From positions 44,266 through 108,265 of the forward strand of contig CAMWXH010000001.1 in the NCBI GenBank assembly GCA_947178165.1: a DNA stretch of 64,000 nucleotides. The letters run 5' to 3'. The translations under genes were made by a program, and so were the position numbers. The notes beneath the pieces are model-generated. The model ran no database searches and was not told the origin of the DNA. It saw only the letters and a program-made list of their open reading frames with translations. Below, piece after piece: positions 23,485 to 57,173 of this stretch (position 1 is its first letter; each line of letters opens with the position of its first letter). The stretch comes from an uncultured Porphyromonadaceae bacterium (lineage in GTDB: Bacteria; Bacteroidota; Bacteroidia; Bacteroidales; Muribaculaceae).

Positions 23485-23490
23485 ATTGCA

Positions 23491-30397: not shown

Positions 30398-30406
30398 AAC
30401 GCTTGA

Positions 30407-31419: not shown

Positions 31420-31474
31420 ATAAGAGTTCAGTTTTTGTTCGAAACTTGTTTTCGAACAAAAACTGAACTCTTAT
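31420..31474 (-). terminator. 25-bp perfect stem / 5-nt loop hairpin after the TPR-HTH regulator gene
   Basis: ataagagttcagtttttgttcgaaa (31420-31444) is the exact reverse complement of 31450-31474. On the minus strand it is followed by TTTTG. Confidence 0.7.
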
Positions 31475-31491
31475 AAACATCTATAACTATA

Positions 31492-33306: not shown

Positions 33307-33314
33307 TTCAATAC

Positions 33315-33340
33315 CAGATGCAACATTTTGCGCAAAGATA
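33315..33340 (-). promoter_or_regulatory. -7 box TAtcTTTG plus the conserved 23-bp block, serving as promoter of the TPR-HTH regulator gene
   Basis: caaagata at 33333-33340 lies 27 nt upstream of the ATG at 33306. The block is identical to 26326-26348. Confidence 0.6.
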
Positions 33341-33506
33341 ATAAATTTAATTGAAACAGAGATTTTATTTTCATATTATTCAGAGGCTATGATGTATGGT
33401 CATAAGAAGATAAGCCCCATTTTCTAAATTTCTGATATTTCAATTTTGAAGATATATTTGGAACTTATCCATTTATTGTGTATTTTAGCGCATAAAATAT
33501 GTCCTG

Positions 33507-34523
33507 ATGAAAATCACCTCTGAATTTCTTAATTTACAGACCGACTTCGGTTTCAAACATCTTTTTGGAGACGAAAGGAACAAGAATATCCTTATGCGTT
33601 TCCTAACTGCCCTGTTGGGCGATAAGATTCATATTAAGGATGTCTCGTTTAAGAATAAGGAAATCCTTCCCCCGAACTCTGATGGAAAAAGAATCATATA
33701 TGATGTCTATTGCACATCCGGGGTCTCAGGCGAAGACTCCGGATTTTTGGAAAGGCCTTTATTGTATGGGGATAAAAGCCGAGCAAGGGATCACCATTTT
33801 ATACTTGAGATGCAGAATCTATACACCCCACCCTTTGAGGAGAGGATGTTTTATTATGCGGCCAAAATGGTGAGCGATCAAGGCAAGGCAGGATGGAACT
33901 ATGACCTGGAACCGGTTATCACCATAGCTGTGACTGATTTCAATTTCCGAAACATGAGTGATAAAATGGTAAGGGATATAATGCTCCTTGACCGTGACAC
34001 TTCGGAAGTGTTGACGGAGAAGTTTCATCTGTTTTTTGTATCGCTTAAGGAAGTCCCTAAATTATGGGAGGAATGTAAAACAGATTTGGAGGAGATATTG
34101 TTTCTATTAAAGAACATGGACAAGATGGATAATAACTCAATTGCCTACAAGGAGGGTAGATATAAGGATATGTTTGAAGCGTCACGTATAAATTCATTAA
34201 AGGAAGAGGATTATATCCGTTACAGTGATTCATTGGAAAAACTCCGAGAGACTCAGGCAGGGATAAAGTATGAGGCCATGATGGCCAGTCGAGAGGCCCG
34301 CGCAAAAGCCTTGGAAGAAGGTCTCGCAGAAGGCCGAGCTAAGGGTTTGGCAGAAGGACGCGCAGAAGGACGTGCAGAAGGCCGTGCCGAAGGTAAGGCT
34401 CAGGGGGAAAGAGAAGAAAAGATAAAGACAGCAAAAATAATGTGGAGCATGGGGCTTCCTAAAGATACCATCCGGGCGGTTACGCGCCTTTCTGACGACG
34501 AGTTAGACGAAATGCTGAAATAG
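33507..34523 (+). CDS. Rpn-family (PDDEXK_2) recombination-promoting nuclease-like protein, second copy
   Basis: N-terminus DFGFKHLFG, a PD-(D/E)XK-like core (IYDVYC...ILEMQ), and a C-terminal LAEGRAKGLAEGRAEGRAEGRAEGKAQGE tract. Confidence 0.7.
   Translation: MKITSEFLNLQTDFGFKHLFGDERNKNILMRFLTALLGDKIHIKDVSFKNKEILPPNSDGKRIIYDVYCTSGVSGEDSGFLERPLLYGDKSRARDHHFILEMQNLYTPPFEERMFYYAAKMVSDQGKAGWNYDLEPVITIAVTDFNFRNMSDKMVRDIMLLDRDTSEVLTEKFHLFFVSLKEVPKLWEECKTDLEEILFLLKNMDKMDNNSIAYKEGRYKDMFEASRINSLKEEDYIRYSDSLEKLRETQAGIKYEAMMASREARAKALEEGLAEGRAKGLAEGRAEGRAEGRAEGKAQGEREEKIKTAKIMWSMGLPKDTIRAVTRLSDDELDEMLK
34318..34400. repeat. 12-bp in-frame coding repeat encoding (AEGR)n, second locus
   Basis: Read directly as gcagaaggccga gctaagggtttg gcagaaggacgc gcagaaggacgt gcagaaggccgt gccgaaggtaag. 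Confidence 0.85.
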
Positions 34524-34598
34524 GCTTTTCTTAGAAAATATTATTGCGTTTAGAAAATTAAGATTTTGAATAAATCTTATAATGTTTGGGAAATATTT

Positions 34599-34634
34599 AT
34601 AAAGGATGTCAGGTTCATGCCTGTCATCCTTTAT
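34599..34634 (+). terminator. Hairpin terminator after the Rpn-like gene
   Basis: ataaaggatgtcagg / cctgtcatcctttat form a 15-bp stem with one mismatch and loop ttcatg, followed by a T-rich stretch. Confidence 0.55.
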
Positions 34635-42901: not shown

Positions 42902-43046
42902 AGTCGGATAAATGGAGAAGAGCGCGGGAGAAACTGACCCCCACACTCTTCGAAAGGAAAAATACACTCAAATTTAAAGATAAAAATTAACAATATCCGA
43001 AAAGAGTCTGAAGATGCAACAATATTAGAAAAGAAAGCGAGATTTT

Positions 43047-43457
43047 TTATATCGTGCCTTTGACCGTCAGCATCACCCTTGGATTGTCGGCATTGCTTCT
43101 TATTCGGAGAGTTTTTCTGAATGGCCCCGGCCTGCGGTTCTTGCTGTCAAAGCTGATCTTTATCTCTCCGCTCTCTCCGGGCCCCACGGCATCCGCGGTG
43201 TAGGAGGAGGTGGTGCATCCGCATTCGGAGAAGATTGCCAGTATCTGCAGGGGCGCTGTGCCGGTGTTTCGGAATCGCATGCTCCCTTCCACAATCGTAT
43301 CGGCATTGATCACGCCGAAATCGAAGTGGCAGGAATCGAGACTCAGGTGGCCGACAGCAACGTTAGTGTCGTCATCGCCAACCGTCGGCCCGGCCAGCGA
43401 GGCCGAGGCTGACGAAAGAGCGATAAAAACAATAATATAAACTAATAGATTTCTCAT
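43047..43457 (-). CDS. DUF1573 domain protein (small secreted Ig-like protein)
   Basis: Signal peptide and the DUF1573-like pattern FDFGVI...FRNTGTAPLQI...ECGCT...PGESGEIKISF. Its ATG overlaps the stop of the giant gene (ATGA). Confidence 0.7.
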   Translation of the reverse strand: MRNLLVYIIVFIALSSASASLAGPTVGDDDTNVAVGHLSLDSCHFDFGVINADTIVEGSMRFRNTGTAPLQILAIFSECGCTTSSYTADAVGPGESGEIKISFDSKNRRPGPFRKTLRIRSNADNPRVMLTVKGTI

Positions 43458-46400
43458 ATACTCAGTTTGACTGTTCTTTCTTCATTAGCATTTCTCATCT
43501 TCACAATTGACACACCCTCATCGAGCGAAAGAGAGAGGGAGTCGCTTCCGCCGGCGTTATGCGTGATGCGTCCTAACGTGTCGCAAACCGTAACACGAAG
43601 TTCCCCTGTGCAGGCGCAGTCAGTCACGTTAAGGATATTTCCGGCCAACGACCATTTGAGAGTTTCGGTGACTATGCTGTCGCTTTTCCCTGCGGTGAGG
43701 TAGAAACGCCCGCCGACAGCTCCTGTCACCTCAATCTCTGTCACCTCCTCAAGCGGTGTCATCGAATCGTCAGATGCATCGTAGAGATAAAGGTCTCCGA
43801 AAGCTTCGGTTCCTTCAAAGCGGAGAATGGAGGCTGTTCCCTCATCGGCTATCAAGCCAATCTCCACTCCCTCGGAATCCGTGCAGAAGTTTATGCTCCT
43901 TGCGTGTCCCCCCTTTGCCGTGAACACAGTGGAGAGAATGTCGAGATCCCGATTGTCAATTGCATCCACGCATTCTTCAGGAACATTGTCCGAGCCCGGA
44001 ACGAGAATTGCCGTTGAGCAAGCCCGCCCTTCGCTGATAGAAGTGATTCTGAGATAAGCCGGCTCGTCTCCGGAGCGTGTGCCCTGAGTGAGAATAGAGC
44101 CATCCTTGTGGTCCCGGCGCATCATAGTCTCATCATATTCCAAATCCAGAGATGTCGCGGCTTTCTTAGATTCCACAAAGAAACCCTGCATCGGTGCAAT
44201 AGCTGTGGCATCTTCTGGAGAATCGCTTTCAGGATAGGGGGAGGCAATGAAATTATTTTCCCCGGAGAGGCTGCCTGCAATTTGGCCATCCTTTGTTACG
44301 ACCCAATATTTCTGTTCCAGCTTGTCCTGGTTCCTGGAGAGAAATCCCTTAATATCCATATAAGTCATGAAAGGATTGCCCACAAGGAAATATTTCCCTT
44401 CATTGGCAGTGGTTACGGTCATTGTTCCATTGCTGACATTGAGGCGGTGACTGTTTTCTCTGTTCAGTGCGGCGGTTTCTTTATTATCCGTTGTGCCATC
44501 CTGTTTGTAATAGAAATAGGTTTCATCTCCTTTGGGCAGGCGGAAGATCACCTTATCTCCGGCATTATTGGCATTGGAGACATCTGTCTTGATAGAGAAA
44601 GCCTTCCCGTTGCCGTAATCCTCTGTGGCATCGTTATAGACGCGGCTCCAGAATGTCTTGACGGCAACATTGCGGGCATCGTTCGTTCCGAACTCATAAA
44701 CGTTCGCGGTGCTCTTGTCCCATCCTCGCTGATACACTGCCGGCGCGAAACGGTCATTCTTTGCCGTATCAAAGGTAATTTCGCGGAACATTTCAGTCTC
44801 CTGGCGAGCTTTTTCAGTTGGAAGATAGAAATCACCGGCGTAGGCATCCTGAAGCGGTGTCGAAAGGATATACCAACGGGAATGGTCAAGCTCTACATCC
44901 ACCCAGGCTTTCTCATAATTGAGCACCTGCTGATTCATGATGGTTGCACCAGGGAGGAAATGGATCTCCTTGCAGCGGTTGGCTTGCCAGGGACGGCAAA
45001 GGAGCCTCTCCTCATCCCACTGTGATTCGCGGGCTGTCATATCATATTGTATGAGCGATGTAGGCCCCCCGATTTTCTCGGCCGGTTTCTCTGCCCCGTC
45101 GGGGTTGGAAGTCCATTTGTTCTTAACAGCGGCATTGTATTCGTCGGTCATCTCCACATTGTCGGTTGCCGGAGCGTAGAGCCAGGGGTTCTCGCCGTCA
45201 GCCCCGATGAAATTTCCCTCCGCATCTCTTGTCACGTCCGGGCGGTCAATCACAACTCTTGTGAAATCGAGCGGCGCGAAACCTCTGCCGTTAGCATTCC
45301 CTCCATCAGTGAACCGGTAATCATCGGCTGATGCGTCAGGTTTCAAGATTTCGGAAGATGTCACGCGCATCCAGTTGTCATCGTTGTCCCACGATAGGTT
45401 CTTGTCGCCATTCCATTTAAGGTATTGCGGTACGACTTTAGTAGTGAATATGTCGTGACCGTTACAGATTGTTTCATCATCTGCATCGATCTCCTCATCG
45501 TTGTTTTCTTCAAATTGATAGCGGAAACGGTAGAAATAACCTTCCTTGAATTTGAAATTCCTGTCGAAATCGGCAGTGAAATGTTTCCTTTCACCTGATG
45601 TTGCCGCACCATTCCCTGAGGAATAGGCATTGAACTCTACAATCTCGCCTACCCAAAGAAGATGTTCTGTCTCCTCTTTTGAGTCATCCAGTGTTCCCAA
45701 ATTGCGGTATTCCGGGTCATTGGTTTGGGCAAGAAGAATGCATCCGGTTCTTTTCACCTTCTCGTTATTGATAATTGTTTCCTCGTTTACGAGAGAGAAC
45801 TCTTTAGGCTTGCCGTCGGAAGAGGATACCGCTCGCAAGGGGATATCGATTTTCCGCAATTCAGACGCAGCGGATGTCACTTCAGAATTTTTGTAAATCT
45901 GATTCAGGCCCAGGCGCAATGGCACGTCATAAAGCTCTGCGGGATAATTCAGGGCCGGGTCGGAAAGGCCGTGGAGAATAACCGGTGTATGATCACCGAC
46001 AGATATTCCGATTTCGGTAGGTGACTTGCAAACCTGCACGCTCTTCCCGCCGGCAGTTTCCCCCGGTGCATTCTCCCAAAGGAGGTCAATTATGGGTATG
46101 GCCACAAAACGGGCTTTTGTTGCGGCCTCGCCTTCATTGCGGCTAACAGGGGGAACAACGAATGAAGCCTGATGCAACACCAGCTTAGGCAGCCCGTTTG
46201 CGGCAGGGGAGGAAGCAACATCAATTATGTCGAGCATCCATTGCTCGAGCATCATATCATCGTCTCCCTTCTCAGTCTCGGCCTTGATTCCGGCCACGCT
46301 CTCCGCTTCAGGATAACGGGCGCGGAACAGATTCAAGGCAGTCTGGAGATAATGAGCATCGTCATCTTCAGTATAGTCATCAGCAACCTCCAGCGATTCG

Positions 46401-49400
46401 GGATAATCTTTGAAACGATAATTCTCAAAATCGTTGATTGAGCCATCAAACCAGTCGAAATAGGCATTCTTCATCACTTCTACCGGTTCCTTGTCAGTGC
46501 TCCAAACATTGAGCTGTATCACCGGCATCTGATTTTCACATGCTTCAAGCTCATTGAACTCGGGTTGGATCACGCCGTCAATCTTAACCTCCAAAGCCGG
46601 AGTCACAGTAAGGACGCAATTATAGGAGCACTCCTCGCCGAGGTCGAAGAATGTGGTCGCATCGTAGCTGTCGGGGAGAATCCCGACGGAATTGTCACCG
46701 TCGTCGAGACGTGACTTGAACACTACATAATATTCCTTGCCGATTTTGAGTTTGCCGGCATCAGCTACAGTCTCGAACACAATCATCCTGTCGCCAGATT
46801 CATTGGTCATGCGATAAGCCGTCTCTTTTGCTATATTGCCCAGACGGTTGCCTCCGTTGTCGGTATATGAATCGTTTTTAGTGAAATTATTGCTGAACTT
46901 CACCTTGCCTATAGTGGCATCGTTCATCGAGCCTGTCTCCTCAAATTTCTCCTTATCCACGAAAGCATAGTAGAGGTCAATTTTTTTATCGGCAGTGCCA
47001 TATCCTTCCGCCTGACCCAACTTTTCGAGCAATGTTTCGAAAGAGGCCTGGATAGTGAGGTCGAGAGGCACATCATCGCATGCAAAGCCATCGTGCGAAG
47101 CATCGGCGGCAGGGGGGAGGACGTAGGCCCGGATGTCATCAATGGCATAATCTGCACCCACAGAGCTTTCTCCGTTATGGGCAAGTTCGAGCTCGAAGTG
47201 ATCCACATCCTTGAAAGTCTTGGTGTCGTTAAAATACTCCGACATGCGAGGAATGAATGAGTAATATACGTTGCACCATTTTCCTAATTTGTCACCAGGG
47301 ATATTTCCTGTAATGAAATTGTGCAGCACCACTCTTTCATTTGTCTCATTCATCACGGCCACAAAATTGAAGGAGATGTTTGCGGCTTCATAATCGTCAT
47401 TGGCGTCTCCTTTAGTCATTTCAGCCACCCAGGCCGATACAATCACGCGACTTCCGGCACATGGGAGGTCCACATTGATGCGTGCCGACACCCCCGGGTC
47501 GGATGCTGCGTTCACATAGTAGAAATAACCCTGCTCCTGCCTTATCTTCTTGTCGGGATTAGCTTCTCTCATTCGCTTGGTCTTGTAGTAGAGGCGGTCG
47601 TATAGCCCGATGCCGTCACCCTCATTGTTAGCATTCCAATTATCTGCACTTGCATGATAGGGGACGTTGGTGGAATGAGTGGCGAGCATATACATGTTGT
47701 AGTTGTATCTGTAGTTGTAGCCGAAACCGTAGGTGGATCGTTCCCATGCGATAGGCCACTTGTAGAAGGCGTGCTGCATTTTAGAGGCGCTCGTGAGATG
47801 ATTTGTGGAATTATGATCCCAAACCACCAGATTCAGCTTATTTTCATCCTTATACCATTGGTCGGCGATGTCAAACGCAGGCACAGAATACGATATGAAC
47901 TTATTTTTCAGTGTTTCATCAGTGAGTTTATTGATTTCAAAATAGTTGTCGAAGTCAATCTTGAATTGAGTATCGCCATACTTCTCCTTGAGATATTCGT
48001 CGCGGGCGTGACGATACCTGTTATTATTCTTATTAGAGGGGTCTGTGTCGTAAAGCTCAGCGTCAGTCAGCAGCGATGCGCTGCTTGAGCCAACAAAACG
48101 GATGTCATATTGCATCAGGATCATCGGGCCGGTGGAAGTGGTTATTATGTTGCCGTTATTATCTTTAGCGAGCACCTGCACAATGTAGCGACCCTCGCCA
48201 GGATTATCTTTACGCAACATCGAATGGTAACGGAACTGATTTTCCGGCTCTGCATACTCCCCGGCTGCCGAGGGTTTGGAGCGGCGCATCCTTATGTCAG
48301 ATCCGAAAACGAAGCCCTGTTCTCCGGGCAATTCCTCGCGCGTGTCGCCGTTCAGCACGCGGATTCCGAATTGACGGATGCGGTCATATTTGCCTGTGGC
48401 ATTGTTCTTGAAATAATAGTTTGTCACGCCGCCCGACGTTCCCCAGCCCGTGGGAAGAGGGGAGTCGAGACGGATCTGGAAATTTGTTCCGGCCATCGCC
48501 GTCACGCGATGCTGGTTCTTTCTTGCATAGTCGCTGTTGGCATCCTGAAGTTCCTCTGTCTGCTGACGCGCATCGCGGATGCGGAAGATATGTCGGAAAG
48601 CAATCAAGGGTTCCATCACCTTTCTTTCATCCACTTTGATATGATTTTCATCGGGATAGAAGGTCTGGCTGAAATCAGCGGCTATCACATATTCGTGAGT
48701 CTCATCCCATTCTCCTTTCAGGTTTTCCGGGAAATAGAACACCGCAGAGGTCCCTGCCTTGCGTCGGCGTTGCTCCTCGCAGTCTTCCCCCTCTCCATGC
48801 CAGGGGCGATGGAACCCGGTTAATAAAAGTTCTCCTCCGAGATTCGGATTTTCGGTGTCGATCAATTCAAACCATCCTGCCATATCGGGAAGGGTGGCGA
48901 ATGGTTTCCAGATGGGATCCGTATAATCTCCTATCTGATTAAAATTGCCGTAGCAGTTTTTGAAGTTGAGGGTCCATGTCACATCAGAGTTATCAAATTT
49001 ACCCTGCTCAATCCATCCCCCTGTCGCATCCTCGTAAGGTTCGTTTCCCAGACTGTGGCGCACGTAGGTTTCTCTCTTCAAAGGTTCATGTCCGGTAAGC
49101 GAGCAATCCACAACTATGTTTTTGAAATAGGAGGGAGTTGCCGACATTCGGGTGTGCAGCCATCCGCAAAGGGCAGTGTTAAATCGCATGCCGAGATCGG
49201 GATTGCCGACAGTTCCACCCACATACACATTCTCCACTGTGAGATGATTGTCGCTGCTCTCATTGTCGCATCTTCCGAGTATGGCACCCACAAAATGCTC
49301 CCCCTCGCTCCCTGTTCCTTTTATAGTGCAATTGCTGTTGATTTTTATGTTCTTGGCGGTCAGACCCCCACCAGTGAGGTATGCCACCAATCCTACATGT

Positions 49401-50335
49401 GTCCAGCCGCTCAGTGTGCAATTGTCAAGAACAAGATTATAAATAGCCACTCCGTTTCCGCCGTTTCTGATTAATCCAACTTTATGTTGGTTGCGCGACA
49501 TATCCAGGTTCTTGATGGCATAGCCCCTTCCGTCAATAATGCCGGTAAAGGGGGTATTGTCATCATTTCCTAACATTGGAACATCATTGATGCCGGAAAA
49601 ATCCAGATCGCAGGTCAGTTCAATGTGTCCCTTTCCTCCGTCGGCATTGATAGCGTTAACGGCATCAACATATTCATTGGTGGATGAGACGATATATTTC
49701 GGTGCGGGTTGAGGCACATCTTTAGTTCCGGGACTCATATAGATTCCGCCATAAAACCCGTAGTCGGAAATCTGAATATATCCGCGATCGTAGGGGAAGT
49801 CGAGGAGGTCGTAGGCTTTCCCGTTTGAATTGGATTCATGGATCACGCGGCCCCCCGTGTTGTAATCATACCAGTGAGAGAATGTCTCGAGATAATCACG
49901 CGTGGAAAGGAAATTATCTCCCGTGGGCTCTTTATATTCCTCCAGACCGTAATATGGGTAGAGCGACACGGCATCGCCGGGCAGTGCATATATGATATGC
50001 TCCACCACGTGGGTCTGCTGACGTTTCTGACCCGGATTGAGTTTCCCTCCCTCGATGAACTCAAAATCAGGGAAGCTGATACCCATGTCGCGAAGTGTCT
50101 GTATTTCATTAGCCGTAGGAAATTCCCAGTTGTCAGGATCCTGCCTATCTTTATCAATCCAGGGGATTCGATTCGGGTTCAGATCCTTCATGCCTCGCGT
50201 ATTCACGAACTCATAGTCCTTGAGATTCTTCAGATATTCATCGGGCAGATTATCCGGTTCCTCCCCGGCAGCTCTTGCTGAGAAGAGGCTTAAAGCGGAG
50301 GTGAAGAGGATGCCATATAGGATTTCGGTTTTCAT
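43454..50335 (-). CDS. Giant (2,293 aa) secreted surface protein in the Mfa5 position of a pilus operon, with a GLUG/beta-helix-like N-terminal region and a T9SS-like C-terminal tail
   Basis: Sec signal peptide, then FTGIIDGRGYAIKNLDM...KVGLI...HVGLVAY...FVGAILG, a GLUG-type repeat pattern. The C-terminal roughly 70 aa (VCDTLGRITH...GVSIVKM...RTVKLSI) resemble a T9SS CTD. The ORF is one uninterrupted 6.9 kb. Confidence 0.8.
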   Translation of the reverse strand: MKTEILYGILFTSALSLFSARAAGEEPDNLPDEYLKNLKDYEFVNTRGMKDLNPNRIPWIDKDRQDPDNWEFPTANEIQTLRDMGISFPDFEFIEGGKLNPGQKRQQTHVVEHIIYALPGDAVSLYPYYGLEEYKEPTGDNFLSTRDYLETFSHWYDYNTGGRVIHESNSNGKAYDLLDFPYDRGYIQISDYGFYGGIYMSPGTKDVPQPAPKYIVSSTNEYVDAVNAINADGGKGHIELTCDLDFSGINDVPMLGNDDNTPFTGIIDGRGYAIKNLDMSRNQHKVGLIRNGGNGVAIYNLVLDNCTLSGWTHVGLVAYLTGGGLTAKNIKINSNCTIKGTGSEGEHFVGAILGRCDNESSDNHLTVENVYVGGTVGNPDLGMRFNTALCGWLHTRMSATPSYFKNIVVDCSLTGHEPLKRETYVRHSLGNEPYEDATGGWIEQGKFDNSDVTWTLNFKNCYGNFNQIGDYTDPIWKPFATLPDMAGWFELIDTENPNLGGELLLTGFHRPWHGEGEDCEEQRRRKAGTSAVFYFPENLKGEWDETHEYVIAADFSQTFYPDENHIKVDERKVMEPLIAFRHIFRIRDARQQTEELQDANSDYARKNQHRVTAMAGTNFQIRLDSPLPTGWGTSGGVTNYYFKNNATGKYDRIRQFGIRVLNGDTREELPGEQGFVFGSDIRMRRSKPSAAGEYAEPENQFRYHSMLRKDNPGEGRYIVQVLAKDNNGNIITTSTGPMILMQYDIRFVGSSSASLLTDAELYDTDPSNKNNNRYRHARDEYLKEKYGDTQFKIDFDNYFEINKLTDETLKNKFISYSVPAFDIADQWYKDENKLNLVVWDHNSTNHLTSASKMQHAFYKWPIAWERSTYGFGYNYRYNYNMYMLATHSTNVPYHASADNWNANNEGDGIGLYDRLYYKTKRMREANPDKKIRQEQGYFYYVNAASDPGVSARINVDLPCAGSRVIVSAWVAEMTKGDANDDYEAANISFNFVAVMNETNERVVLHNFITGNIPGDKLGKWCNVYYSFIPRMSEYFNDTKTFKDVDHFELELAHNGESSVGADYAIDDIRAYVLPPAADASHDGFACDDVPLDLTIQASFETLLEKLGQAEGYGTADKKIDLYYAFVDKEKFEETGSMNDATIGKVKFSNNFTKNDSYTDNGGNRLGNIAKETAYRMTNESGDRMIVFETVADAGKLKIGKEYYVVFKSRLDDGDNSVGILPDSYDATTFFDLGEECSYNCVLTVTPALEVKIDGVIQPEFNELEACENQMPVIQLNVWSTDKEPVEVMKNAYFDWFDGSINDFENYRFKDYPESLEVADDYTEDDDAHYLQTALNLFRARYPEAESVAGIKAETEKGDDDMMLEQWMLDIIDVASSPAANGLPKLVLHQASFVVPPVSRNEGEAATKARFVAIPIIDLLWENAPGETAGGKSVQVCKSPTEIGISVGDHTPVILHGLSDPALNYPAELYDVPLRLGLNQIYKNSEVTSAASELRKIDIPLRAVSSSDGKPKEFSLVNEETIINNEKVKRTGCILLAQTNDPEYRNLGTLDDSKEETEHLLWVGEIVEFNAYSSGNGAATSGERKHFTADFDRNFKFKEGYFYRFRYQFEENNDEEIDADDETICNGHDIFTTKVVPQYLKWNGDKNLSWDNDDNWMRVTSSEILKPDASADDYRFTDGGNANGRGFAPLDFTRVVIDRPDVTRDAEGNFIGADGENPWLYAPATDNVEMTDEYNAAVKNKWTSNPDGAEKPAEKIGGPTSLIQYDMTARESQWDEERLLCRPWQANRCKEIHFLPGATIMNQQVLNYEKAWVDVELDHSRWYILSTPLQDAYAGDFYLPTEKARQETEMFREITFDTAKNDRFAPAVYQRGWDKSTANVYEFGTNDARNVAVKTFWSRVYNDATEDYGNGKAFSIKTDVSNANNAGDKVIFRLPKGDETYFYYKQDGTTDNKETAALNRENSHRLNVSNGTMTVTTANEGKYFLVGNPFMTYMDIKGFLSRNQDKLEQKYWVVTKDGQIAGSLSGENNFIASPYPESDSPEDATAIAPMQGFFVESKKAATSLDLEYDETMMRRDHKDGSILTQGTRSGDEPAYLRITSISEGRACSTAILVPGSDNVPEECVDAIDNRDLDILSTVFTAKGGHARSINFCTDSEGVEIGLIADEGTASILRFEGTEAFGDLYLYDASDDSMTPLEEVTEIEVTGAVGGRFYLTAGKSDSIVTETLKWSLAGNILNVTDCACTGELRVTVCDTLGRITHNAGGSDSLSLSLDEGVSIVKMRNANEERTVKLSI

Positions 50336-50351
50336 ATATCTTGTGGTATGA

Positions 50352-51785
50352 TTAGTTTCTGATGATATAAATTTTTCGGGTGTAACTGTCGGTGTTCATT
50401 GCGCCGGTTTCGTAGTGAGGGCGGTCATAAACCTTCACCGTGAATTCCAAAGAAGCTTTTCCCTCCTTTTCATTCAGTGTGCCAGTCACTTCGTTGGGCA
50501 GAGAGGCCGAAGTGGAGGTGAGAGTGGGCTGTTTTGAGAAAATGTCAGTCCCGGTCACATTGGATATTGCAATAGTGTAATATATGGGTGCGAGATGCAT
50601 TCCTGTCTGTTTGTCGGTAACAGTAGCGGCGATCTCGAAATCGCCCGGCGTGCCGAAAGTGAATATCTGGGCGCCCTCCGGATCTGTTGAGGAGGTCATT
50701 GCCGGGTAACCGCCGATAGGGGGATAGAAAAGAGCTTCCACATTCACATCGTAGCGTGAGATCCTGACGGGAATGACTATCCAGTCGTTTCGGTTGATAT
50801 AGGAGAGTATATCGCGCGTGATATTATGTTGTTCATAATCGCTCACCTCATTTTGGCCGTTTACTTCATTTTTGTGTGCATGGCTCACTTTCAATCCGAT
50901 TGTGAAAGCGCCGTCATTGGCACGATCGGAAAGCGATTCCTGCATAAAAAAGCTTTTGTTCAGTTTCTTGCCTGCACCTACAGTGTTGCCAGATGAGAGA
51001 GTGAAGGTTTGGTTTGCGTAAGTCGCATTTGTAAGGGGAGAGAAAGCAGAAAGTCCCAGGTGGGAGTAGGCTATGCCTGATTCTCCTCGTGGAAAAAGGG
51101 AGACTCCATTGGAGGTGACAGGATCAATGCTTACGCTTTGCACCGTCACATCTTCATCCCCTGCATTTTCAAATTGAAATTCCATTTTGGCCACCATTCT
51201 GACAACTTCAATTGTGAAAGACTCCTCAATGCTGTTCTTAACCTTGACACCTTTCAGGAAGCCAGACATCGGTATAGGCTGGGTGGCATCCCAATTGTTT
51301 AGGGAGTTTTTCCATTGGGCCGCTTCCACGCTATTGACAGATACCTTGGCACCCTTTTTGAATTCAATGCCGGTTTCAGATTTCAAAGTCGCTTCATTGA
51401 TATTGGCGAAGGCATATATGTTGTAGGTTCCCGAAGGGATGATGCATTTGAAACTTTCCAATTCCACAGCCGCGGTTAGTTCCGAACTGCGGTTCACCAC
51501 CCCTGCCACCGTTCCGTTTTTATCCACGAAAGCGATCCACCAGGAATTTATCTTCTCATTATTGCCGGCAGGGTCGGCGGTGTGGCCGTCGCCTGTGCTT
51601 TCGCCGGCCGTCATCGGGTCGCTGCGGAGGGTTTCGATAGAGATTCCGATCTCTGTGGGAATGCCATCCGTGAAGTTGGAATCATCCGTGAGAGGATTCT
51701 CATTAGAACAACCGCAGAACACCAGGGTGCCTGCGGATAATAGACAGGTCGTCAAGACCGGTGATATATAATTTTTGAAAATCAT
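50352..51785 (-). CDS. Fimbrial accessory lipoprotein (Mfa3/Mfa4-position)
   Basis: Lipobox LVFCGC. 477 aa. The call rests on operon position between the pilin genes and the giant gene; no strong motif was recognised. Confidence 0.5.
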   Translation of the reverse strand: MIFKNYISPVLTTCLLSAGTLVFCGCSNENPLTDDSNFTDGIPTEIGISIETLRSDPMTAGESTGDGHTADPAGNNEKINSWWIAFVDKNGTVAGVVNRSSELTAAVELESFKCIIPSGTYNIYAFANINEATLKSETGIEFKKGAKVSVNSVEAAQWKNSLNNWDATQPIPMSGFLKGVKVKNSIEESFTIEVVRMVAKMEFQFENAGDEDVTVQSVSIDPVTSNGVSLFPRGESGIAYSHLGLSAFSPLTNATYANQTFTLSSGNTVGAGKKLNKSFFMQESLSDRANDGAFTIGLKVSHAHKNEVNGQNEVSDYEQHNITRDILSYINRNDWIVIPVRISRYDVNVEALFYPPIGGYPAMTSSTDPEGAQIFTFGTPGDFEIAATVTDKQTGMHLAPIYYTIAISNVTGTDIFSKQPTLTSTSASLPNEVTGTLNEKEGKASLEFTVKVYDRPHYETGAMNTDSYTRKIYIIRN

Positions 51786-51819
51786 ATCAAGAGTGTTAAG
51801 ATTGAGCAGGATTTATAGT

Positions 51820-53565
51820 TTAAAATGTGAGAGGATTTTTCTCTTCGCGCTTATTCCATTTCCTCACGAATATGCGGCTTGTCATCGTGTCGGGTTCACG
51901 CATTGTCGGAGTGGGGTGGCCCGGGCCTGAGAAACTTATCGCTACACGATATATGTTGTTTCTCACTATTGCATATTCCATGGGATAGTCTTGCTGCGGG
52001 TCGGCATTGTCAAGGTTGAAATGGCGGAGCCAGAGATTGTAATAGCATGCGCCGCCATCAAATTTGGTGATGCTGGCATTATCCTGCGGATGAGCGGAAG
52101 AATATTGCGAAGCCTCCGACTCCGACGCGAAATAGAGGGCTTCGGAATCCCTGTTGGAGTCATTTTCACCTGTCGAAGGGATATATCGCCAGAAAGTCTT
52201 GTCGGCCATGGCTTTCCAGTCGGCATCAGATTTTGTGGACTTTGTCAGTTCCTTTGTGGCATTATTCCAGTTGCTCCAGACTGTGGGCTGATACACGCCG
52301 CGCAGAGCTATGCCGGTGATGAATTTAGAGTTGTAGCAATCCGGGCTCTGGATATTCTCATTGGCGTATGAAATGATGGTCATGCGGTCGCAATTGTCGA
52401 AATCCGTTTCCGGAGCCGGGAGCGCAGTGGAGAAATAACCGGCGAAAACACCCTTTGCCGCATTGCTTATGTCATTATTAACCGTTGCAACAGCTGTGGA
52501 GCCATACCATTCAGCCGGCACTGAAGTTGTTCCCGGCTTCGAGAGGGTGCGGGGTTCAATCACATAATTTGAGGGGATTAAAGTGGTGGCATCTACCTGC
52601 TCTGCGCCTCCCCAGGTTATTTTTCCCAACCCCGATTCATTCCAGCTTGCGGGAATTGCGCCGGTCACTTTGGTGAGGAGGTAGGAAGTTTTCTGCATCA
52701 CGTTCACCGGAAGGATATTGGTGATATGCACCTTGTTGCCTGATGAGGGAACGTTATAAAGCAACTCATCTTTGGCGAAGTTTTCCGCTTTATACATCAA
52801 GTCTATACGTGCGCACATACGCTGCACGGTGGTTTCTCCTATCCATTTCTTGCCGGCCCATGGATTTCCGGGGAGGGCATCAGGCTTAGTGTTAATCACG
52901 AGACGGTTGCTTCCTACAGAGCGTGCAACCCCGTCAATGAGTATTTTCCCATTGCTGTTGGCATCGTAGGCGGTGGTCATAATGAATTTCTCGCAATTTG
53001 ATGCATCTGCGTTTCCGGCTGAAACCCAGGCAGCGCTGAGATTGAAATAACTGCGTAGGTCGTCAAGATTATTTATCCCTGCTGAGATGTCTCTGCCGGC
53101 ATTCAGCACCGTTATGAAACTCACATCCGTTGCGCTAAGAATCCCCTGATTCCCTAAATCCGTATCGGCTGTCTTGATTTTTATGGTCAGTTTCTTCTCA
53201 AAAGGAAGACCCTCTTCCAATGTTGCGAGCCGGTCAAGATTGCTTACATACACATTCGTCACTTCAGGGTTTTCCACGGGATTAAGACCTGATCCTTTGA
53301 AGAAAAAAACGTTGGCGTCAAACACCCTGTTCTCATTCTGCAATCCCTTTTCGCGGCCATTTCCATCCTCGCCGCCTATGGGGTTGGCTCGGGTGATTGT
53401 TTCGGAATCAGCCATAGGCACGCGGAGCACTATGGTTATCTCTCCCTCCCGGGTGGCATCGTTCTCCTCCGGAACAGGAAGCGAGTCAGAACATGCCCCC
53501 ATTGCCATCATCATCGAGGGTAGGATAAGGAGACGGAATGTATGTAAGAGGTTAGTTGTTTTCAT
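51820..53565 (-). CDS. Mfa1-family pilin-like lipoprotein (second pilin)
   Basis: Lipobox AMGAC and the C-terminal motif AIVRNNIYRVAISF, similar to P. gingivalis Mfa1 VVRNNIYHIHIKSI. Confidence 0.65.
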   Translation of the reverse strand: MKTTNLLHTFRLLILPSMMMAMGACSDSLPVPEENDATREGEITIVLRVPMADSETITRANPIGGEDGNGREKGLQNENRVFDANVFFFKGSGLNPVENPEVTNVYVSNLDRLATLEEGLPFEKKLTIKIKTADTDLGNQGILSATDVSFITVLNAGRDISAGINNLDDLRSYFNLSAAWVSAGNADASNCEKFIMTTAYDANSNGKILIDGVARSVGSNRLVINTKPDALPGNPWAGKKWIGETTVQRMCARIDLMYKAENFAKDELLYNVPSSGNKVHITNILPVNVMQKTSYLLTKVTGAIPASWNESGLGKITWGGAEQVDATTLIPSNYVIEPRTLSKPGTTSVPAEWYGSTAVATVNNDISNAAKGVFAGYFSTALPAPETDFDNCDRMTIISYANENIQSPDCYNSKFITGIALRGVYQPTVWSNWNNATKELTKSTKSDADWKAMADKTFWRYIPSTGENDSNRDSEALYFASESEASQYSSAHPQDNASITKFDGGACYYNLWLRHFNLDNADPQQDYPMEYAIVRNNIYRVAISFSGPGHPTPTMREPDTMTSRIFVRKWNKREEKNPLTF

Positions 53566-53570
53566 GAAGG

Positions 53571-54734
53571 TTAAATATTAATGTTCTGAATTCTTTTGCT
53601 CCATGAAAGGACATGGAGTTCAACCATTATCCAGTCGTCGTCTTTCAGGTATATATCGAGATTATAATCATGCTCCCGGTCGAGATATTCTTGCAATCCG
53701 TAGTTCTTCAATGGATATGCCTGTCGTCCTTGCGAGAGGATTGCGGGGAGGTTGATACGGCTCACCATCTTCCCGTTCTGCCGGTTATAAATCTCCAGCA
53801 TCGCGTTGTCTTGGCTATCATCGGGATTTATGATCAGACGGTTGAACATTATGTCATATTCAGCTTTAGGATCCACGCTATTGTCGGTTTCAGCCCTGGA
53901 AGGGCGGAAGGTGTATGGGATGTATCGCAAAGAATCATGGGTGAGCACACTGTTGTCGTGTGAAAAATGCGCATTGTTGTCGATTATCATCACATCGTAG
54001 GCATCCGACAAGACATATTCGGGAGTGCCGACATGACGCAATGTGAGGTTAAGGTGTTTGGTGTTTCTTATGAGTGAGATTGTTGCGTAGGTGGCATGTT
54101 CATCTTTCACTTCTGCCATCTGTTCTTCAAGCGGATAGATGGAATAGGGTGCGGAGGTTGGTTCCGGTGCGGGGACAATCACGCCGTCGCGTGGTGTTCC
54201 GGGATTCACCTTAAGAGTATGCCAGAGGGTATCGAGTGGTGCTGAGGCATCCACGGCGAATTGGTTGGTGCCGGGTATGGGTTCGCTATCATGGTCGAGA
54301 GATATCATCATATTCTCGGAATTGTCAGTGGGGGAGGCTGTATGGCGATATTTGGCACCTCCGAAAGAGAGGGCTTCATCCCAGTCGCGCTGCATGCCTA
54401 CGGCCTGAAGTCGGTAGCGATGGCCGGCGGGTAGTTCAGACTGGCTGAAATGTATGTTGTAGCCATACTGCTTGAGAGGGGAGTCGTCCGGGGTGTTGCT
54501 TACGCTTCGTTGCGCCGCGAGATTACCCTTTTCATCGAACACATAGAGCTGGATATGCCCGACGTGATCCTGAAATAGATCCTGACCGGCAGTATTGTAA
54601 TCATATACAAAGCGTACATAAAGCCCTTCCGGACATCCTTCACGGTCTTCGTAAATCAACGAGCATGAACCGAGGGTGATTGCCGTCAGAGAGCAGATAA
54701 GAGAGGTTGCAATATTTGAGAGAGTAAGTCTCAT
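53571..54734 (-). CDS. FimB/Mfa2-family fimbrial anchor/terminator-like lipoprotein
   Basis: Lipobox TLGSC. 387 aa. The C-terminus MVELHVLSWSKRIQNINI parallels the pilin C-terminal strand motif, and the gene sits second in the operon as mfa2 does. Confidence 0.6.
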   Translation of the reverse strand: MRLTLSNIATSLICSLTAITLGSCSLIYEDREGCPEGLYVRFVYDYNTAGQDLFQDHVGHIQLYVFDEKGNLAAQRSVSNTPDDSPLKQYGYNIHFSQSELPAGHRYRLQAVGMQRDWDEALSFGGAKYRHTASPTDNSENMMISLDHDSEPIPGTNQFAVDASAPLDTLWHTLKVNPGTPRDGVIVPAPEPTSAPYSIYPLEEQMAEVKDEHATYATISLIRNTKHLNLTLRHVGTPEYVLSDAYDVMIIDNNAHFSHDNSVLTHDSLRYIPYTFRPSRAETDNSVDPKAEYDIMFNRLIINPDDSQDNAMLEIYNRQNGKMVSRINLPAILSQGRQAYPLKNYGLQEYLDREHDYNLDIYLKDDDWIMVELHVLSWSKRIQNINI

Positions 54735-54820
54735 CGTGTCAAATTTTTTGAGTCAAGGAGCCCGTGTTAATTGAAAAGGGGGAAGAGGCGTGCCGGAAGA
54801 GCAAACCTCTTCCCATGCCA

Positions 54821-56851
54821 TTAGAAATCAATACCCTGCAAACGTTTAGCCCACGACATGATGTGGATTTCGACAGCGAGGAATTTGGTATCCTCTATGT
54901 TGTCGTCAGAAAGTTCTACATTCACATCAGGGATTGTGGTGCTTCCAAGTCCGGAGATGGTGTTGATTGCGAGTTCATACCAGTTGTTGCGAACCACGCC
55001 GTGACGTCCGAGATAATTTTTATAGGTTGTTTCAGATCTCGGGTTGGGATATACTTCCCCTGTGGTGGTTCCCTTGATATCCCTCTCTTTCCAGGGGGTG
55101 TAAAATTCTCCGAAGTGCTCGATTGGAATTGCATAGTAGGAGACACAATCGGAGTAGCGTCTCACGTCGCTGAGGGCATTTATATTGCCGATAAGATTAT
55201 AGAGTTGTGATGCCGTGTTATCGGCTGTTCCGAGTTCCGCTTCAAATTTGTTTTGGTCAAATGTGGCAGTATCCTTTATTTTGATGTTGCTGATAAGCAC
55301 CTCGTCATCATCAAGTTGCCATTCAATATCAAGACTGTTCTTCATATTGATTGTAGCCGGTTTCGGCACCCCGTTCTTCACGCTGTTTTCGAGAGCCTGC
55401 TTGATGAGTTCACTGTTATATACACGAGCGATTGCGTCGGCACATGCCTCATCTCTCTTCAAGTATATTTTTTGTTTGTTTCCATCCTTGATATATAGAT
55501 GAGTCACCTTGTTGTTATCGGCATCTGTGATGTTGTAGGTCACTTTGAACACCGCCATGGTGGAGTTCTTGTAATTCATGTTGGGCACGGTCAATGTGTT
55601 CTCCTTACAATAGAAAGTCTTGCTTGCTAAAGCGAAGAAAGCATTGTCGAAAGGAGCAGAGTCGTCATAGTCGAAACCTGTTGCTCCGGGATTTAGGATA
55701 TACTTATCCGGATTCAATGCGGAATTTACCACACCGTTCATTTCAGTGTAATAATTTGGATCCACACACCAGTAAGTTCTCACGAGGTTCTGATCCTGGT
55801 CGTGGAAAGGGGAGTTGAGTTTGTTTATGGGTTTGGTGCCGACCATACGGACCTCTTTCTCATTTCCATCCTTATCGGTGGCCTTGTAATCCCATCCGAA
55901 GAAACCGTTGGTTGCGGAATTAGGTTTAAATTCCACGTTGCGTATCAGATAGCTTGACTTGTTGGTGTTAGTGAGCGCATATTCCACCTGGGCGGTTACT
56001 TTAACGGCACTCTTTCCATTGTCGTCAACTATCTCTTCGCCATCTCCATTAACGAAAGTGAGTTTAAGGTTTTTATTGTCGAAGGGCTGACTTGTGACTT
56101 TTGCCACACCGCGTTCCACGTAAACACATCCTGCCACGTTCTGCTTTGCCTCGTCGGCTGTAGGCTTTACGTTATTTGACAGCTTGGTCATGTACTGGAC
56201 AGTTTTCGTTGTTGGGTTGTAAAGCGGTGCATTGGTCATGAAAATGTGAGTCTCTTCACCAGTCTTATCTTTTGCAAAGAAGGCTTTGTCGGTTGTTAGA
56301 TTAAGGAAATCGCTGAACTTCCCGACATTGTCTTCCTGATCGAATGTTTTGTCGCCAATCGTGATCTCGGTTGCCATTGCATTGGATGTTGAGGGCACCT
56401 TGACAAAATCTTTGTTCCTGTTGAGCATCACCAATGCATAGAATACATCAGTTGATTCCTCACCCGGATCAACTTCCACCGGAATTGCGGCAAAATAGGA
56501 AGCAGAGATCTGGGAGCCATGGAGGTTTGAGAAGAAAGGCTTCGTGAGTTCCTTGGCTTTATAGAAAGTTGCGTCCTCCTCTTTTCCTCCTGTGGTTCCT
56601 TTGAAAAGAAGGATGAGGGCGTTGTCATCTTCCACTCGGTATTCGTTTGGAGTGCCATCGTCAAACTGGTCATTCTCTGCACGTGTTCCTCCTTCCTGTG
56701 GAAGTTCAATCTGTACGCCGAGATATCCCACTGCCGGTACGCCTTGTCCGGCTTCGGCTTGCTGATTCTCTTGGGGAATCAGATCATTGTCTGAGCATGC
56801 GCCAAGCATTGTTAGCGCCATTGCTCCATAGAGCCATTTGTAAAGCTTCAT
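54821..56851 (-). CDS. Mfa1-family major fimbrial subunit-like lipoprotein
   Basis: I trimmed the start to MKLYKWLYGAMALTMLGAC (lipobox). VVRNNWYELAINTISGLG and the C-terminal AVEIHIMSWAKRLQGIDF parallel Mfa1 VVRNNIYHIHIKSIKKLG and VEVTVLPWKVHSYEVDL. Confidence 0.7.
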   Translation of the reverse strand: MKLYKWLYGAMALTMLGACSDNDLIPQENQQAEAGQGVPAVGYLGVQIELPQEGGTRAENDQFDDGTPNEYRVEDDNALILLFKGTTGGKEEDATFYKAKELTKPFFSNLHGSQISASYFAAIPVEVDPGEESTDVFYALVMLNRNKDFVKVPSTSNAMATEITIGDKTFDQEDNVGKFSDFLNLTTDKAFFAKDKTGEETHIFMTNAPLYNPTTKTVQYMTKLSNNVKPTADEAKQNVAGCVYVERGVAKVTSQPFDNKNLKLTFVNGDGEEIVDDNGKSAVKVTAQVEYALTNTNKSSYLIRNVEFKPNSATNGFFGWDYKATDKDGNEKEVRMVGTKPINKLNSPFHDQDQNLVRTYWCVDPNYYTEMNGVVNSALNPDKYILNPGATGFDYDDSAPFDNAFFALASKTFYCKENTLTVPNMNYKNSTMAVFKVTYNITDADNNKVTHLYIKDGNKQKIYLKRDEACADAIARVYNSELIKQALENSVKNGVPKPATINMKNSLDIEWQLDDDEVLISNIKIKDTATFDQNKFEAELGTADNTASQLYNLIGNINALSDVRRYSDCVSYYAIPIEHFGEFYTPWKERDIKGTTTGEVYPNPRSETTYKNYLGRHGVVRNNWYELAINTISGLGSTTIPDVNVELSDDNIEDTKFLAVEIHIMSWAKRLQGIDF

Positions 56852-56984: not shown

Positions 56985-57173
56985 GTGTCGGAAAAATGAA
57001 AGCAGTATAATATCGGGGGGATGTATTATAAAAAATTGAGCAGTGTAGCAAAACTCCACGACAATGTTTGAAAATTATACAAATCGGGAATTTCAGTCTT
57101 AAAAAGCCATTGATTATGTGAAAAATAGGGGAATTGTAGAGAAAAACGACATAGTTGTTCAGTTTTCCGACAC
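56985..57173. repeat. 16-bp inverted repeats (15/16 match) bracketing a 157-bp segment between divergent promoters
   Basis: gtgtcggaaaaatgaa (56985-57000) compared with the reverse complement of ttcagttttccgacac (57158-57173). Confidence 0.8.

Follow-up and report, generated by a model that had tools for sequence, protein, structure and literature searches.

Gene content of the operon

The subject of this analysis is a group of six genes, here named g1 to g6, within a 64,000-nucleotide stretch of DNA from an uncultured Porphyromonadaceae bacterium (GTDB family Muribaculaceae; GenBank assembly GCA_947178165.1, contig CAMWXH010000001.1, positions 44,266 to 108,265). The whole stretch is referred to below as the window, and positions are given in its own numbering. 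All six genes lie on the minus strand. The first, g1 (54821..56851), encodes a stalk (Mfa1-family) pilin precursor of 676 aa and is followed by g2 (53571..54734) for an Mfa2/FimB-type anchor lipoprotein of 387 aa, g3 (51820..53565) for a second Mfa1-family pilin of 581 aa at the Mfa3 position, and g4 (50352..51785) for a tip-pilin-like lipoprotein of 477 aa. The fifth gene, g5 (43454..50335), encodes a secreted multidomain protein of 2,293 aa at the Mfa5 position, and the sixth, g6 (43047..43457), a DUF1573 Ig-like protein of 136 aa.

An initial annotation of this DNA had described six minus-strand genes, tightly spaced and ending in an ATGA overlap, and the open reading frames (ORFs) were found at these positions. 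The intergenic gaps from g1 to g5 measure 86, 5, 34 and 16 nt, and the stop codon of g5 overlaps the start codon of g6 as ATGA (...AGTATATGAGAAAT...). The length of g1 had to be corrected from 677 to 676 aa, as the stop codon had been counted. An alternative GTG start for g1 is present at 56950; the nearest homologue, in locus L001, begins at the same MKLYKWLYGAMALTMLGAC, in favour of the ATG at 56851. Lipobox cysteines were found in g1 (GAC/S, with the slash following the cysteine), g2 (GSC/S), g3 (GAC/S) and g4 (CGC/S), while g5 and g6 carry ordinary cleavable Sec signal peptides without a lipobox cysteine. The same gene order was seen in dozens of independent genomes, so the arrangement is far from chance. 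Judged by gene content and order, the locus is not a one-off but stands for a variant of the Mfa-type pilus operon that is widespread and so far without annotation.

Pilin genes g1 to g4

Comparison of g1 with Pfam gave a match to Fimbrillin_C (1e-19, 71.2 bits, cutoff 27), and NCBIfam fim_Mfa1_fam (NF038041) matched over the full length at 4.7e-32, with 111.9 bits under a cutoff of 130. A profile built from g1 and five homologues matched the type V pilin structure 4jrf (1e-26) and the Porphyromonas gingivalis Mfa1 structures 5nf2/5nf3 (~4e-3) in the PDB. The protein has a lipoprotein signal (..MLGAC/SDN), a conserved G-T-R/A site near residue 57 and a donor-strand motif at its C-terminus (..MSWAKRLQGIDF). 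For g2, the Pfam family Mfa2 (PF08842) was matched at 5.4e-38 (131.6 bits, cutoff 21.2) and the Mfa2-like structures 3gf8 and 4qdg at 4e-20 and 1.7e-17, respectively. Its C-terminus shows the motif ..LSWSKRIQNINI, and on these profile scores g2 is a clear Mfa2-family anchor.

The third gene product resembles the first. It matched Fimbrillin_C (9e-14) and, over its full length, fim_Mfa1_fam (5e-32, 111.7 bits, again under the cutoff of 130), and its profile matched 4jrf (2e-10), the Mfa1 C-terminal domain protein 9y6o (1.7e-6) and 4q98 (1e-3). A lipobox (MGAC/S), a T-R/A site and a C-terminal strand (..VRKWNKREE..) are all present. By these scores g1 and g3 are divergent members of the type V pilin superfamily outside the curated Mfa1 subfamily of NCBIfam. 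The initial annotation had set a pilin-family check for g1 to g3, and the matches to hidden Markov models (HMMs) and PDB profiles place all three in type V pilin families.

In g4, fim_Mfa1_fam was matched over residues 15-224 only (1.6e-10), so that its N-terminal domain is pilin-like, and neither Fimbrillin_C nor a W-x-K-R C-terminal strand was found; the lipobox agrees with its earlier description as a lipoprotein. Authentic P. gingivalis Mfa4, when scanned alike, gave the same weak Mfa1_fam pattern (1e-12), and the g4 homologue in locus L008 also matches FimD_tip_adhes at 2.9e-7. Searches of PDB sequences with g4, as a single sequence and as a profile, returned nothing. From these features, g4 is best described as a tip-like pilin.

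Alignment of the proteins across six operons showed that the lipobox is kept, and that a T-R-A motif is kept ~30-40 residues past it. At the putative Arg site, which the homologues keep, the residues are T-R-A for both g1 and g3, and L-R-S for g4. The T-R-A motif would be the expected proteolytic maturation site of the pilin precursors. Over the same six operons, C-terminal strands were found at sequence level in g1 (..SWAKR.Q..), g2 (..SWSKRIQ..) and g3 (..KWN.R..), and none in g4. Donor strands have been described on stalk, anchor and Mfa3 proteins and on none of the tip proteins (PMC13655056). The distribution from g1 to g4 fits this published rule, and g3 is a probable adaptor joining stalk and tip.

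The giant protein g5

No match of g5 to Pfam or NCBIfam was obtained even at E=10, and a sequence search of the PDB gave none. The protein was modelled by AlphaFold2 in two halves with family alignments, and the models were compared with the PDB by Foldseek. Residues 23-1140 gave a mean predicted local distance difference test score (pLDDT) of 78.8 and a predicted template modelling score (pTM) of 0.67; residues 1141-2293 gave 76.7 and 0.73. Both models are fairly confident and nearly all beta. Matches of the whole halves to flavivirus E, S-layer proteins and GhpA had Foldseek probabilities <0.3 and were disregarded as multi-domain noise.

Within the N-terminal half, residues ~213-492 (48860..49699, minus strand; boundaries approximate, from the secondary-structure and pLDDT profile) form a predicted right-handed beta-helix of the GLUG or 'putative IgA1 protease' BACOVA_03286 type, matching 3n6z with E 1e-5, probability 1.0, 322 columns and 15% identity. 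Internal-repeat BLAST against homologue P0007 indicated one to four copies of this unit among homologues, with up to 4 in the larger ones. Residues ~938-1096 (47048..47524, minus strand; boundaries again approximate) form a jelly-roll beta-sandwich of the carbohydrate-binding module (CBM), MAM or ephrin-receptor ligand-binding domain type, with Foldseek probabilities of 0.9-1.0 to 1umi, 1pmj (CBM27), 8yt7 (MAM), 6yf6, 3hei and others. It ends in ..GADYAIDDIRAY, with an invariant GADYAIDDIR motif, and is flanked by the invariant Cys959 and Cys1086. In the model it is a putative ligand (glycan) binding head.

The C-terminal end consists of a 'pre-CTD' module at residues ~1974-2211 (43703..44416, minus strand; ..YFLVGNPFM.., ..APMQGFFV..) and a divergent type A C-terminal sorting domain (CTD) of a type IX secretion system (T9SS) at residues ~2212-2293 (43457..43702, minus strand). 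The presence of a CTD, for which a check had been proposed, is borne out by the fold, as the last ~80 residues matched the RgpB CTD (5ag8, 7pq4) and DUF3244 (3sd2) with probability 1.0; on the curated model TIGR04183 the match of g5 is weak and falls short of the cutoff of 23 (13.2 bits, E 0.064). The CTDs of homologues score progressively better on that model, and homologue P0021 passes at 25 bits. A profile of the family CTD matches PF18962-bearing cargo with up to 42 bits, and several homologues are named 'T9SS type A sorting domain-containing protein' at NCBI. On profile and model evidence together, g5 carries a divergent T9SS type A CTD.

Across the family the N-terminus of g5 is variable, while the architecture from about residue 900 to 2293 is near-invariant, a core of ~1,400 residues. 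The core holds eight invariant cysteines in plausible pairs, which suggest four disulfides.

A search of g5 for a von Willebrand factor A (vWA) or MIDAS signature was negative: HMMs gave no match at E=10, and none of the Foldseek matches has a vWA fold. This agrees with the initial annotation, which had seen no such motif. The same tools detect VWA_2 (3.6e-16) in authentic Mfa5, and a vWA domain in g5 was rejected. GBS104-like_Ig gave no match to g5 either.

The domain content also bears on whether g5 is primarily a secreted enzyme, protease or glycan-degrading, that is merely presented by a pilus or by the cell surface. The best structural match of the N-terminal half, 3n6z, was deposited as a 'putative immunoglobulin A1 protease', the jelly roll resembles CBMs that accompany glycoside hydrolases, and genes for GH32 (in the window and L001), an alpha-amylase-family protein (L004) and GH43 (L008) lie nearby. 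However, no catalytic domain was detected in g5 by Pfam, NCBIfam, PDB sequence search or Foldseek, the match to 3n6z covers the beta-helix and not a protease domain, and the fructan context is limited to the closest relatives, the neighbourhood of carbohydrate-active enzymes not being conserved. An enzymatic role is thus considered very improbable.

Distribution of the g5 family and operon census

A word-indexed search found 30 relatives of g5 only, an undercount that is an artefact of the method when set against exhaustive HMMER. The latter was run with g5 residues 1141-2293 and returned 1,227 clusters at E<=1e-3, of which 567 reach E<=1e-30, each cluster being represented at 50% identity. 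The proteins from a third search were at most ~1,020 aa long, many being evident fragments, and no relative with a vWA domain was among them. In a scan of one genome per species, 271 loci of the g5 family were found, nearly all in uncultured Muribaculaceae (Sangeribacter, Duncaniella, Muribaculum, Limisoma), with some in metagenome-assembled genomes (MAGs) of Prevotellaceae, Alloprevotella, Parabacteroides and Bacteroides. Almost all members come from uncultured Muribaculaceae and Prevotellaceae of mouse, human or livestock gut. By its homologues the source organism of the window also belongs to the Muribaculaceae, and proteins P0031 and P0050 show that there is a Muribaculaceae MAG with 97-98% identity.

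The gene surroundings were surveyed with a local HMM per component in the best 78 of the 271 loci. Among the 50 giants with a complete 5' end and sufficient upstream sequence, 44 are directly preceded by a g4-like gene, commonly with a gap of less than 20 nt or an overlap, and the exceptions are mostly the second member of a tandem array of giants. If 6 kb of sequence was to hand upstream, stalk and Mfa2 genes were usually present as well. This linkage of pilin and giant genes is kept at unrelated genomic sites, in both Muribaculaceae and Prevotella. Locus L001 shows full synteny with the window including the fructan genes described below, the same six genes occur at other genomic sites in L004, L008 and L011, and the Prevotella-type loci L006 and L007 have a five-gene version without DUF1573. 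A layout unique to the source genome was accordingly rejected, the same operon type being present in many Muribaculaceae loci. Of the earlier proposal that a sixth, translationally coupled gene had been added to make a locally expanded layout, the gene and its overlap stand, while the expansion proved to be a conserved operon type.

The same survey bears on the main rival reading. Here g5 and g6 would be a T9SS surface-adhesin module complete in itself, anchored at the cell surface after CTD cleavage as other type A cargo is; it would often stand behind pilus operons and be transcribed with them, yet stay outside the filament, with the pilus ending in g4. Pilin genes are missing beside the giant and DUF1573 pair in L002/L003, L005 and L090, and the pair in L005 stands next to gldK/L/M/N and further CTD cargo. 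Within the Muribaculaceae the link between giant and DUF1573 is as tight as, or tighter than, that between giant and pilins, and the C-terminal module of g5 is generic T9SS cargo equipment. Against this reading, the g4-like tip pilin gene that directly precedes the giant in 44/50 loci does so, often with overlap, in two families and at many sites, and conserved adjacency of this kind usually reflects physical interaction; the studied analogue, Mfa5, is moreover a tip component (PMC7835359). We regard such an autonomous module as unlikely.

Two giants in tandem were observed in L009 and also in several other genomes (L051, L063, L074), which parallels mfa5-1/mfa5-2 of P. gingivalis.

The DUF1573 partner g6

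For g6, a match to Pfam DUF1573 (PF07610) was obtained at 3.3e-26 (91.6 bits, cutoff 26.1), as the initial annotation had it. Further matches were a HYDIN/VesB-like Ig (1e-13) and the NCBIfam OS_HP2 (seleno)protein (5.7e-16, below cutoff). The protein has a Sec signal peptide and neither a lipobox nor a CTD, and would therefore be periplasmic by default. Its C79-G80-C81 motif is invariant in an alignment of 6 g6 partners. Selenoprotein members of DUF1573 carry UGC at the C-G-C motif (PMC9312934), and by established selenocysteine/cysteine logic the motif is likely redox-active. A DUF1573 protein of 133 aa has been detected in outer-membrane vesicles of Tannerella; otherwise the literature searched mentions DUF1573 only in passing, assigns it no function and has nothing on a genomic coupling with giant T9SS cargo.

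Directly after the giant gene, a DUF1573 gene was found in 54 of 75 cases, or 56 of 75 after correction of two over-extended ORF starts; in three more loci it stands before the giant, between g4 and the giant (~59/75 adjacent overall). In 23 cases the two genes overlap by 4 nt, and in 7 by 1 nt. Homologues of g6 with at least 43% identity were seen only beside giants, and a 32%-identical DUF1573 stands alone. The placement between the g4-like gene and the giant was observed in L054, L061 and L063, loci with giants of 3,300-3,800 aa.

On sequence grounds, g6 is most likely a dedicated periplasmic holdase or thiol-redox partner of g5 before export. A comparison of the g5 cysteines gave no support for a redox client, as the invariant cysteines do not track the presence of DUF1573. 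What does vary is the N-terminal region: the beta-helix region is kept by 68-79% of the giants linked to DUF1573 over residues 201-400 and by 32% over residues 401-500, and by 0-2% of the unlinked giants, the latter being only 7 genes that are also phylogenetically the most distant.

These data bear as well on a different role for g6, as a structural piece exported piggy-back and displayed with g5, or as an adaptor passing g5 to the T9SS. Translational coupling suggests near-stoichiometric co-production, the HYDIN/VesB/PapD-like class of Ig-like proteins often mediates protein-protein contacts, the DUF1573 gene may stand either before or after the giant gene, and the linked giants mostly keep the beta-helix region that the 7 unlinked ones lack. 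On the other hand, g6 alone should remain in the periplasm for want of a CTD and a lipobox, the invariant CGC and the selenocysteine variants elsewhere in the family point to chemistry rather than scaffolding, and the beta-helix correlation hangs on those 7 distant genes. A structural or adaptor role appears doubtful on this balance.

Proposed mechanism and significance

The interpretation that we favour, and consider fairly probable, is that the operon encodes a type V (Mfa/Fim-class) pilus on which a T9SS-delivered g5 adhesin is docked by g3/g4, with g6 assisting in the periplasm. In this scheme g1 to g4 would be made as lipoprotein precursors, and g1, g3 and g4 would lose an N-terminal segment at the conserved Arg. 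The stalk would form by polymerisation of g1 via donor-strand exchange, with g2 as its outer-membrane anchor and terminator; g3, which has a donor strand, would bridge stalk and tip, and g4, which has none, would cap the filament. The giant g5 is predicted to cross the inner membrane via Sec, to fold in the periplasm and to be displayed at the pilus tip through g3/g4, in the manner of P. gingivalis Mfa5. Its variable N-terminal head (beta-helix and lectin-like jelly roll) would be the adhesin, and the invariant C-terminal core of ~1,400 residues the spacer and docking part. Translational coupling would provide g6 in step with g5, on which it may act before export as a holdase or thiol-redox partner. 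The data show the families to which g1, g2, g3 and g6 belong, the pilin-like N-terminal part of g4, the CTD and domain folds of g5, and a conserved linkage of the genes. The tip location, the T9SS dependence and the adhesin function of g5, like the role of g6, are what we infer from gene order, predicted signals and family behaviour. A placement of g5 at the tip of a pilus has its precedent in Mfa5, whose traits recur in the g5 family: the N-terminus varies, the C-terminus is constant, and copies stand in tandem.

Several observations weigh against this interpretation. The cutoff of 130 bits for fim_Mfa1_fam is missed by both g1 and g3 (~112 bits), and the g5 CTD lies under that of TIGR04183 (13.2 vs 23 bits). 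No T9SS core genes were found within the 64-kb window; on the L005 contig, gldK/L/M/N and porP are located 4-9 kb from the giant gene. The sole homology between g5 and Mfa5 is a non-specific pre-CTD and CTD module, and it is by inference that g5 is made a physical part of the pilus. No pilin gene could be recognised beside the giant and DUF1573 pair of at least L002/L003, L005 and L090, or beside the giants of L009, which stand alone, so a giant can function without a cognate pilus operon. Finally, the eight invariant cysteines are retained in giants without a DUF1573 neighbour, which weakens a strict redox-client model, and the presence of DUF1573 tracks the retention of the beta-helix region rather than the cysteines (7 unlinked genes).

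With respect to the literature searched, three elements appear to be new: the giant core of ~1,400 residues, the beta-helix and lectin-like heads, and the coupled DUF1573 partner. The conserved pairing of giant and DUF1573 is the most novel of them. A giant vWA-less protein at the fifth position is already on record in P. gingivalis genotype E (PMC8313007). A wider proposal, offered tentatively and with more doubt than confidence, is that giant and DUF1573 form a two-component unit, not recognised before, in which DUF1573 acts as a dedicated periplasmic Cys-X-Cys redox chaperone or export adaptor of very large T9SS cargo, and that the pili of Muribaculaceae and Prevotellaceae are hybrid organelles to which the T9SS delivers a lectin/beta-helix tip of ~250 kDa, the shaft being exported by another system. 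If there is such a unit, DUF1573 would receive its first function, and an orphan domain would gain a testable role. If the organelles are hybrid, the Mfa5 principle, known only from P. gingivalis, would be a general and modular way of arming the pili of gut Bacteroidales; type V pili and the T9SS, two machines specific to Bacteroidota, would be linked as a general design; and the swappable heads would be candidates for attachment of abundant commensals to host glycans or particles.

Among the adhesive organelles of gut Bacteroidales, type V pili have a major place, and what is known of their acquisition of specific adhesins comes in essence from a single organism, P. gingivalis. In the g5 family the tip position would be held by a giant, predicted T9SS cargo without any domain annotation. 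A Pfam or NCBIfam model is merited for this family, which is at present annotated as 'hypothetical' or by its CTD only. A pilus operon with a CTD protein would not surprise a specialist; the breadth of the family and its coupling to DUF1573 raise a testable question on the joining of T9SS cargo to type V pili.

Genomic setting and further observations

The neighbourhood of the operon is chromosomal, with MnmG, UvrC and CarB upstream. On one side lies a minus-strand gene for a hybrid two-component sensor with a periplasmic sugar-binding domain (40088-42967), and on the other a plus-strand gene for a GH32 and DUF4960 protein of 1,371 aa resembling levan-binding surface glycan-binding proteins (57303-61418); the pilus operon is thus wedged within a fructan-utilisation locus. 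Both flanks are also found in the 62%-identical relative L001, the sensor flank alone was detected in the near-duplicate L015, and more distant operons are without them. A functional tie of the operon to the flanking fructan genes was rejected, the context being common only to the nearest relatives.

About 130 nt upstream of the g1 start lies an inverted-repeat element whose 16-nt arms, GTGTCGGAAAAATGAA / TTCAGTTTTCCGACAC (56985-57000 and 57158-57173), are 94% complementary and separated by 157 nt; a TAttTTTG (-7-like) motif stands just downstream of the proximal arm. A full Bacteroides -33/-7 promoter consensus was not found inside the 157-nt segment, nor was a comparable inverted repeat found upstream of the homologous operons L001, L004 and L006. 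From its sequence, the repeat could be an invertible (phase-variation) promoter element.

Elsewhere in the window, a low-GC island at ~26000-34600 (35-41% vs ~48-51% elsewhere) contains ORFs of 695 aa (28310-30397) and 214 aa without a Pfam match, a TPR protein gene (31492-33306) and a PD-(D/E)XK transposase-family gene (33507-34523). This island was probably acquired horizontally.

Among the related loci, genes for DUF3575 (outer-membrane beta-barrel-like) and DUF3868 stand ahead of the stalk gene in L004, L006, L007, L008 and L089, and are found neither in the window nor in L001. In L008 a tyrosine recombinase gene lies just upstream, and downstream of the pilus operon of L007 (~16500-25154) are defence-like genes for PIN, LmuB_C (Lamassu), SIR2_2 and a DUF87/FtsK-like ATPase. 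Loci L042 and L070 hold typical Bacteroidales pilus operons, yet their MAGs bear the names 'Clostridium sp.' and 'Opitutae bacterium'; most likely these public records were contaminated at binning or given a wrong label.

Comparison with known systems

SprB and RemA of Flavobacterium johnsoniae and GhpA of Aureispira are, like g5, giant, mostly beta, modular proteins with a Sec signal and a T9SS CTD that are displayed at the surface. They differ in that they are not encoded in pilin operons, and SprB and RemA have type B CTDs and dedicated PorP/SprF-like partners. Comparison of g5 with GhpA by Foldseek gave a probability of 0.14, which is not meaningful. BACOVA_03286 (PDB 3n6z), a GLUG-motif 'putative IgA1 protease', shares the fold of g5 residues ~213-492, but with 15% identity, and corresponds to one of at least eight g5 domains. 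Towards the DUF1573 / OS_HP2 (seleno)protein family, g6 is a clear member with the family's C-G-C motif.

The closest system is the mfa1-mfa5 operon of P. gingivalis. Both have, in one direction, a stalk pilin, an Mfa2-family anchor, two accessory pilins and a large non-pilin with a Sec signal and a T9SS CTD; both have lipoprotein precursors with an Arg processing site (predicted here) and donor-strand motifs on stalk and anchor and none on the tip pilin. There are differences as well. The g3 protein is an Mfa1-type paralogue (Fimbrillin_C), whereas true Mfa3 matches the Pfam Mfa2 family; g4 lacks the MfA4_C domain, and g1 is ~110 residues longer than Mfa1. A DUF1573 gene follows g5, whereas ragA/ragB follow P. 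gingivalis mfa5 (PMC8512630), and many related operons, though not that of the window, open with DUF3575 and DUF3868 genes. The initial annotation had the first five positions mirror mfa1-mfa5; this is upheld for position but not for orthology, since g3 is of the Mfa1 type and the similarity of g5 is limited to a generic module. Its statement that both pilins are much larger than Mfa1 (563 aa) is correct for g1 but not for g3, which at 581 aa is of similar size.

For Mfa5 itself, it has been reported that it is the only Mfa protein with a CTD and that it accumulates inside cells on removal of the CTD or of porU (PMC7835359, PMC8512630, PMC8313007). It is located at the fimbrial tip (PMC7835359) and bound by Mfa3, and tandem mfa5 copies are frequent (PMC7835359, PMC8512630, PMC8313007). 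Five genotypes have the C-terminal half and CTD in common and an N-terminal half that differs; vWF is missing from genotypes D and E, and the genotype E gene has 6,615 bp and encodes 2,204 aa (PMC8313007). As genotypes D and E have neither (PMC8313007), the vWA and isopeptide Ig domains are not strictly defining for Mfa5. The description of the fifth gene as about twice the size of Mfa5 therefore stands as to size and not as to novelty, genotype E Mfa5 already having 2,204-2,210 aa without vWF.

For direct comparison, the CTD peptide given in PMC8313007 was back-translated and used to retrieve P. gingivalis mfa loci from a metagenome. Locus L095 encodes Mfa3 (446 aa), Mfa4 (333 aa, with MfA4_C) and Mfa5 (1,249 aa, with VWA_2 and GBS104-like Ig), and locus L093 (5286-11918, minus strand) a genotype E Mfa5-2 of 2,210 aa without a Pfam or NCBIfam match at E<=0.01. 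A profile of g5 residues 1750-2293 and 15 diverse homologues scored 52-55 bits on all three Mfa5 sequences, compared with 7.8 bits for the best of 600 shuffled controls. By hhalign, g5 residues ~1983-2293 aligned with residues 917-1248 of the vWA form of Mfa5 (97.2%, E 3e-11, 303 columns; pre-CTD and CTD together), and the C-terminal ~310 residues with genotype E Mfa5 (94.7%). Beyond these ~310 residues no similarity of g5 to Mfa5 was found, the 2,210-aa form included.

With the CTD removed, the g5 pre-CTD profile (~235 residues) gave 26-33 bits on Mfa5 and 42-68 bits on unrelated cargo of Flavobacteriia (Polaribacter, Tenacibaculum, Winogradskyella and others) with Laminin_G_3, LTD, FN3 or C1A protease domains. 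Because unrelated cargo scores higher, the region shared by g5 and Mfa5 is a generic T9SS cargo module, and orthology of g5 with Mfa5 was rejected as unproven. The pre-CTD module itself (..LVGNPF.., ..P.QgFFV..) was seen in Mfa5, the g5 family and many Flavobacteriia cargo proteins (P0286-P0308), and no Pfam or NCBIfam model over this region was reported in the proteins scanned or listed. Its sequence distribution suggests that it may be a general, undescribed element of T9SS cargo.

The remaining likeness lies in position and pattern. Genotype E Mfa5 and g5 have the same operon position and are similar in size, and neither has a vWF domain or matches Pfam or NCBIfam; in the g5 family, as in Mfa5, variable N-terminal heads are set on a constant C-terminal part and genes are duplicated in tandem. 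By contrast, g5 has neither the vWA/MIDAS domain nor the GBS104-like isopeptide Ig domains that type-strain Mfa5 carries, and the g5 family has an invariant ~1,400-residue core of its own (about residues 900-2293) that was not seen in Mfa5. The N-terminal ~1,850 residues of Mfa5-2 (L093) show no similarity to g5. Going by their sequences, the heads of giant proteins at the Mfa5 position appear to have been recruited independently. By analogy of position, export signal and family behaviour, g5 holds the place of Mfa5 and probably its role.

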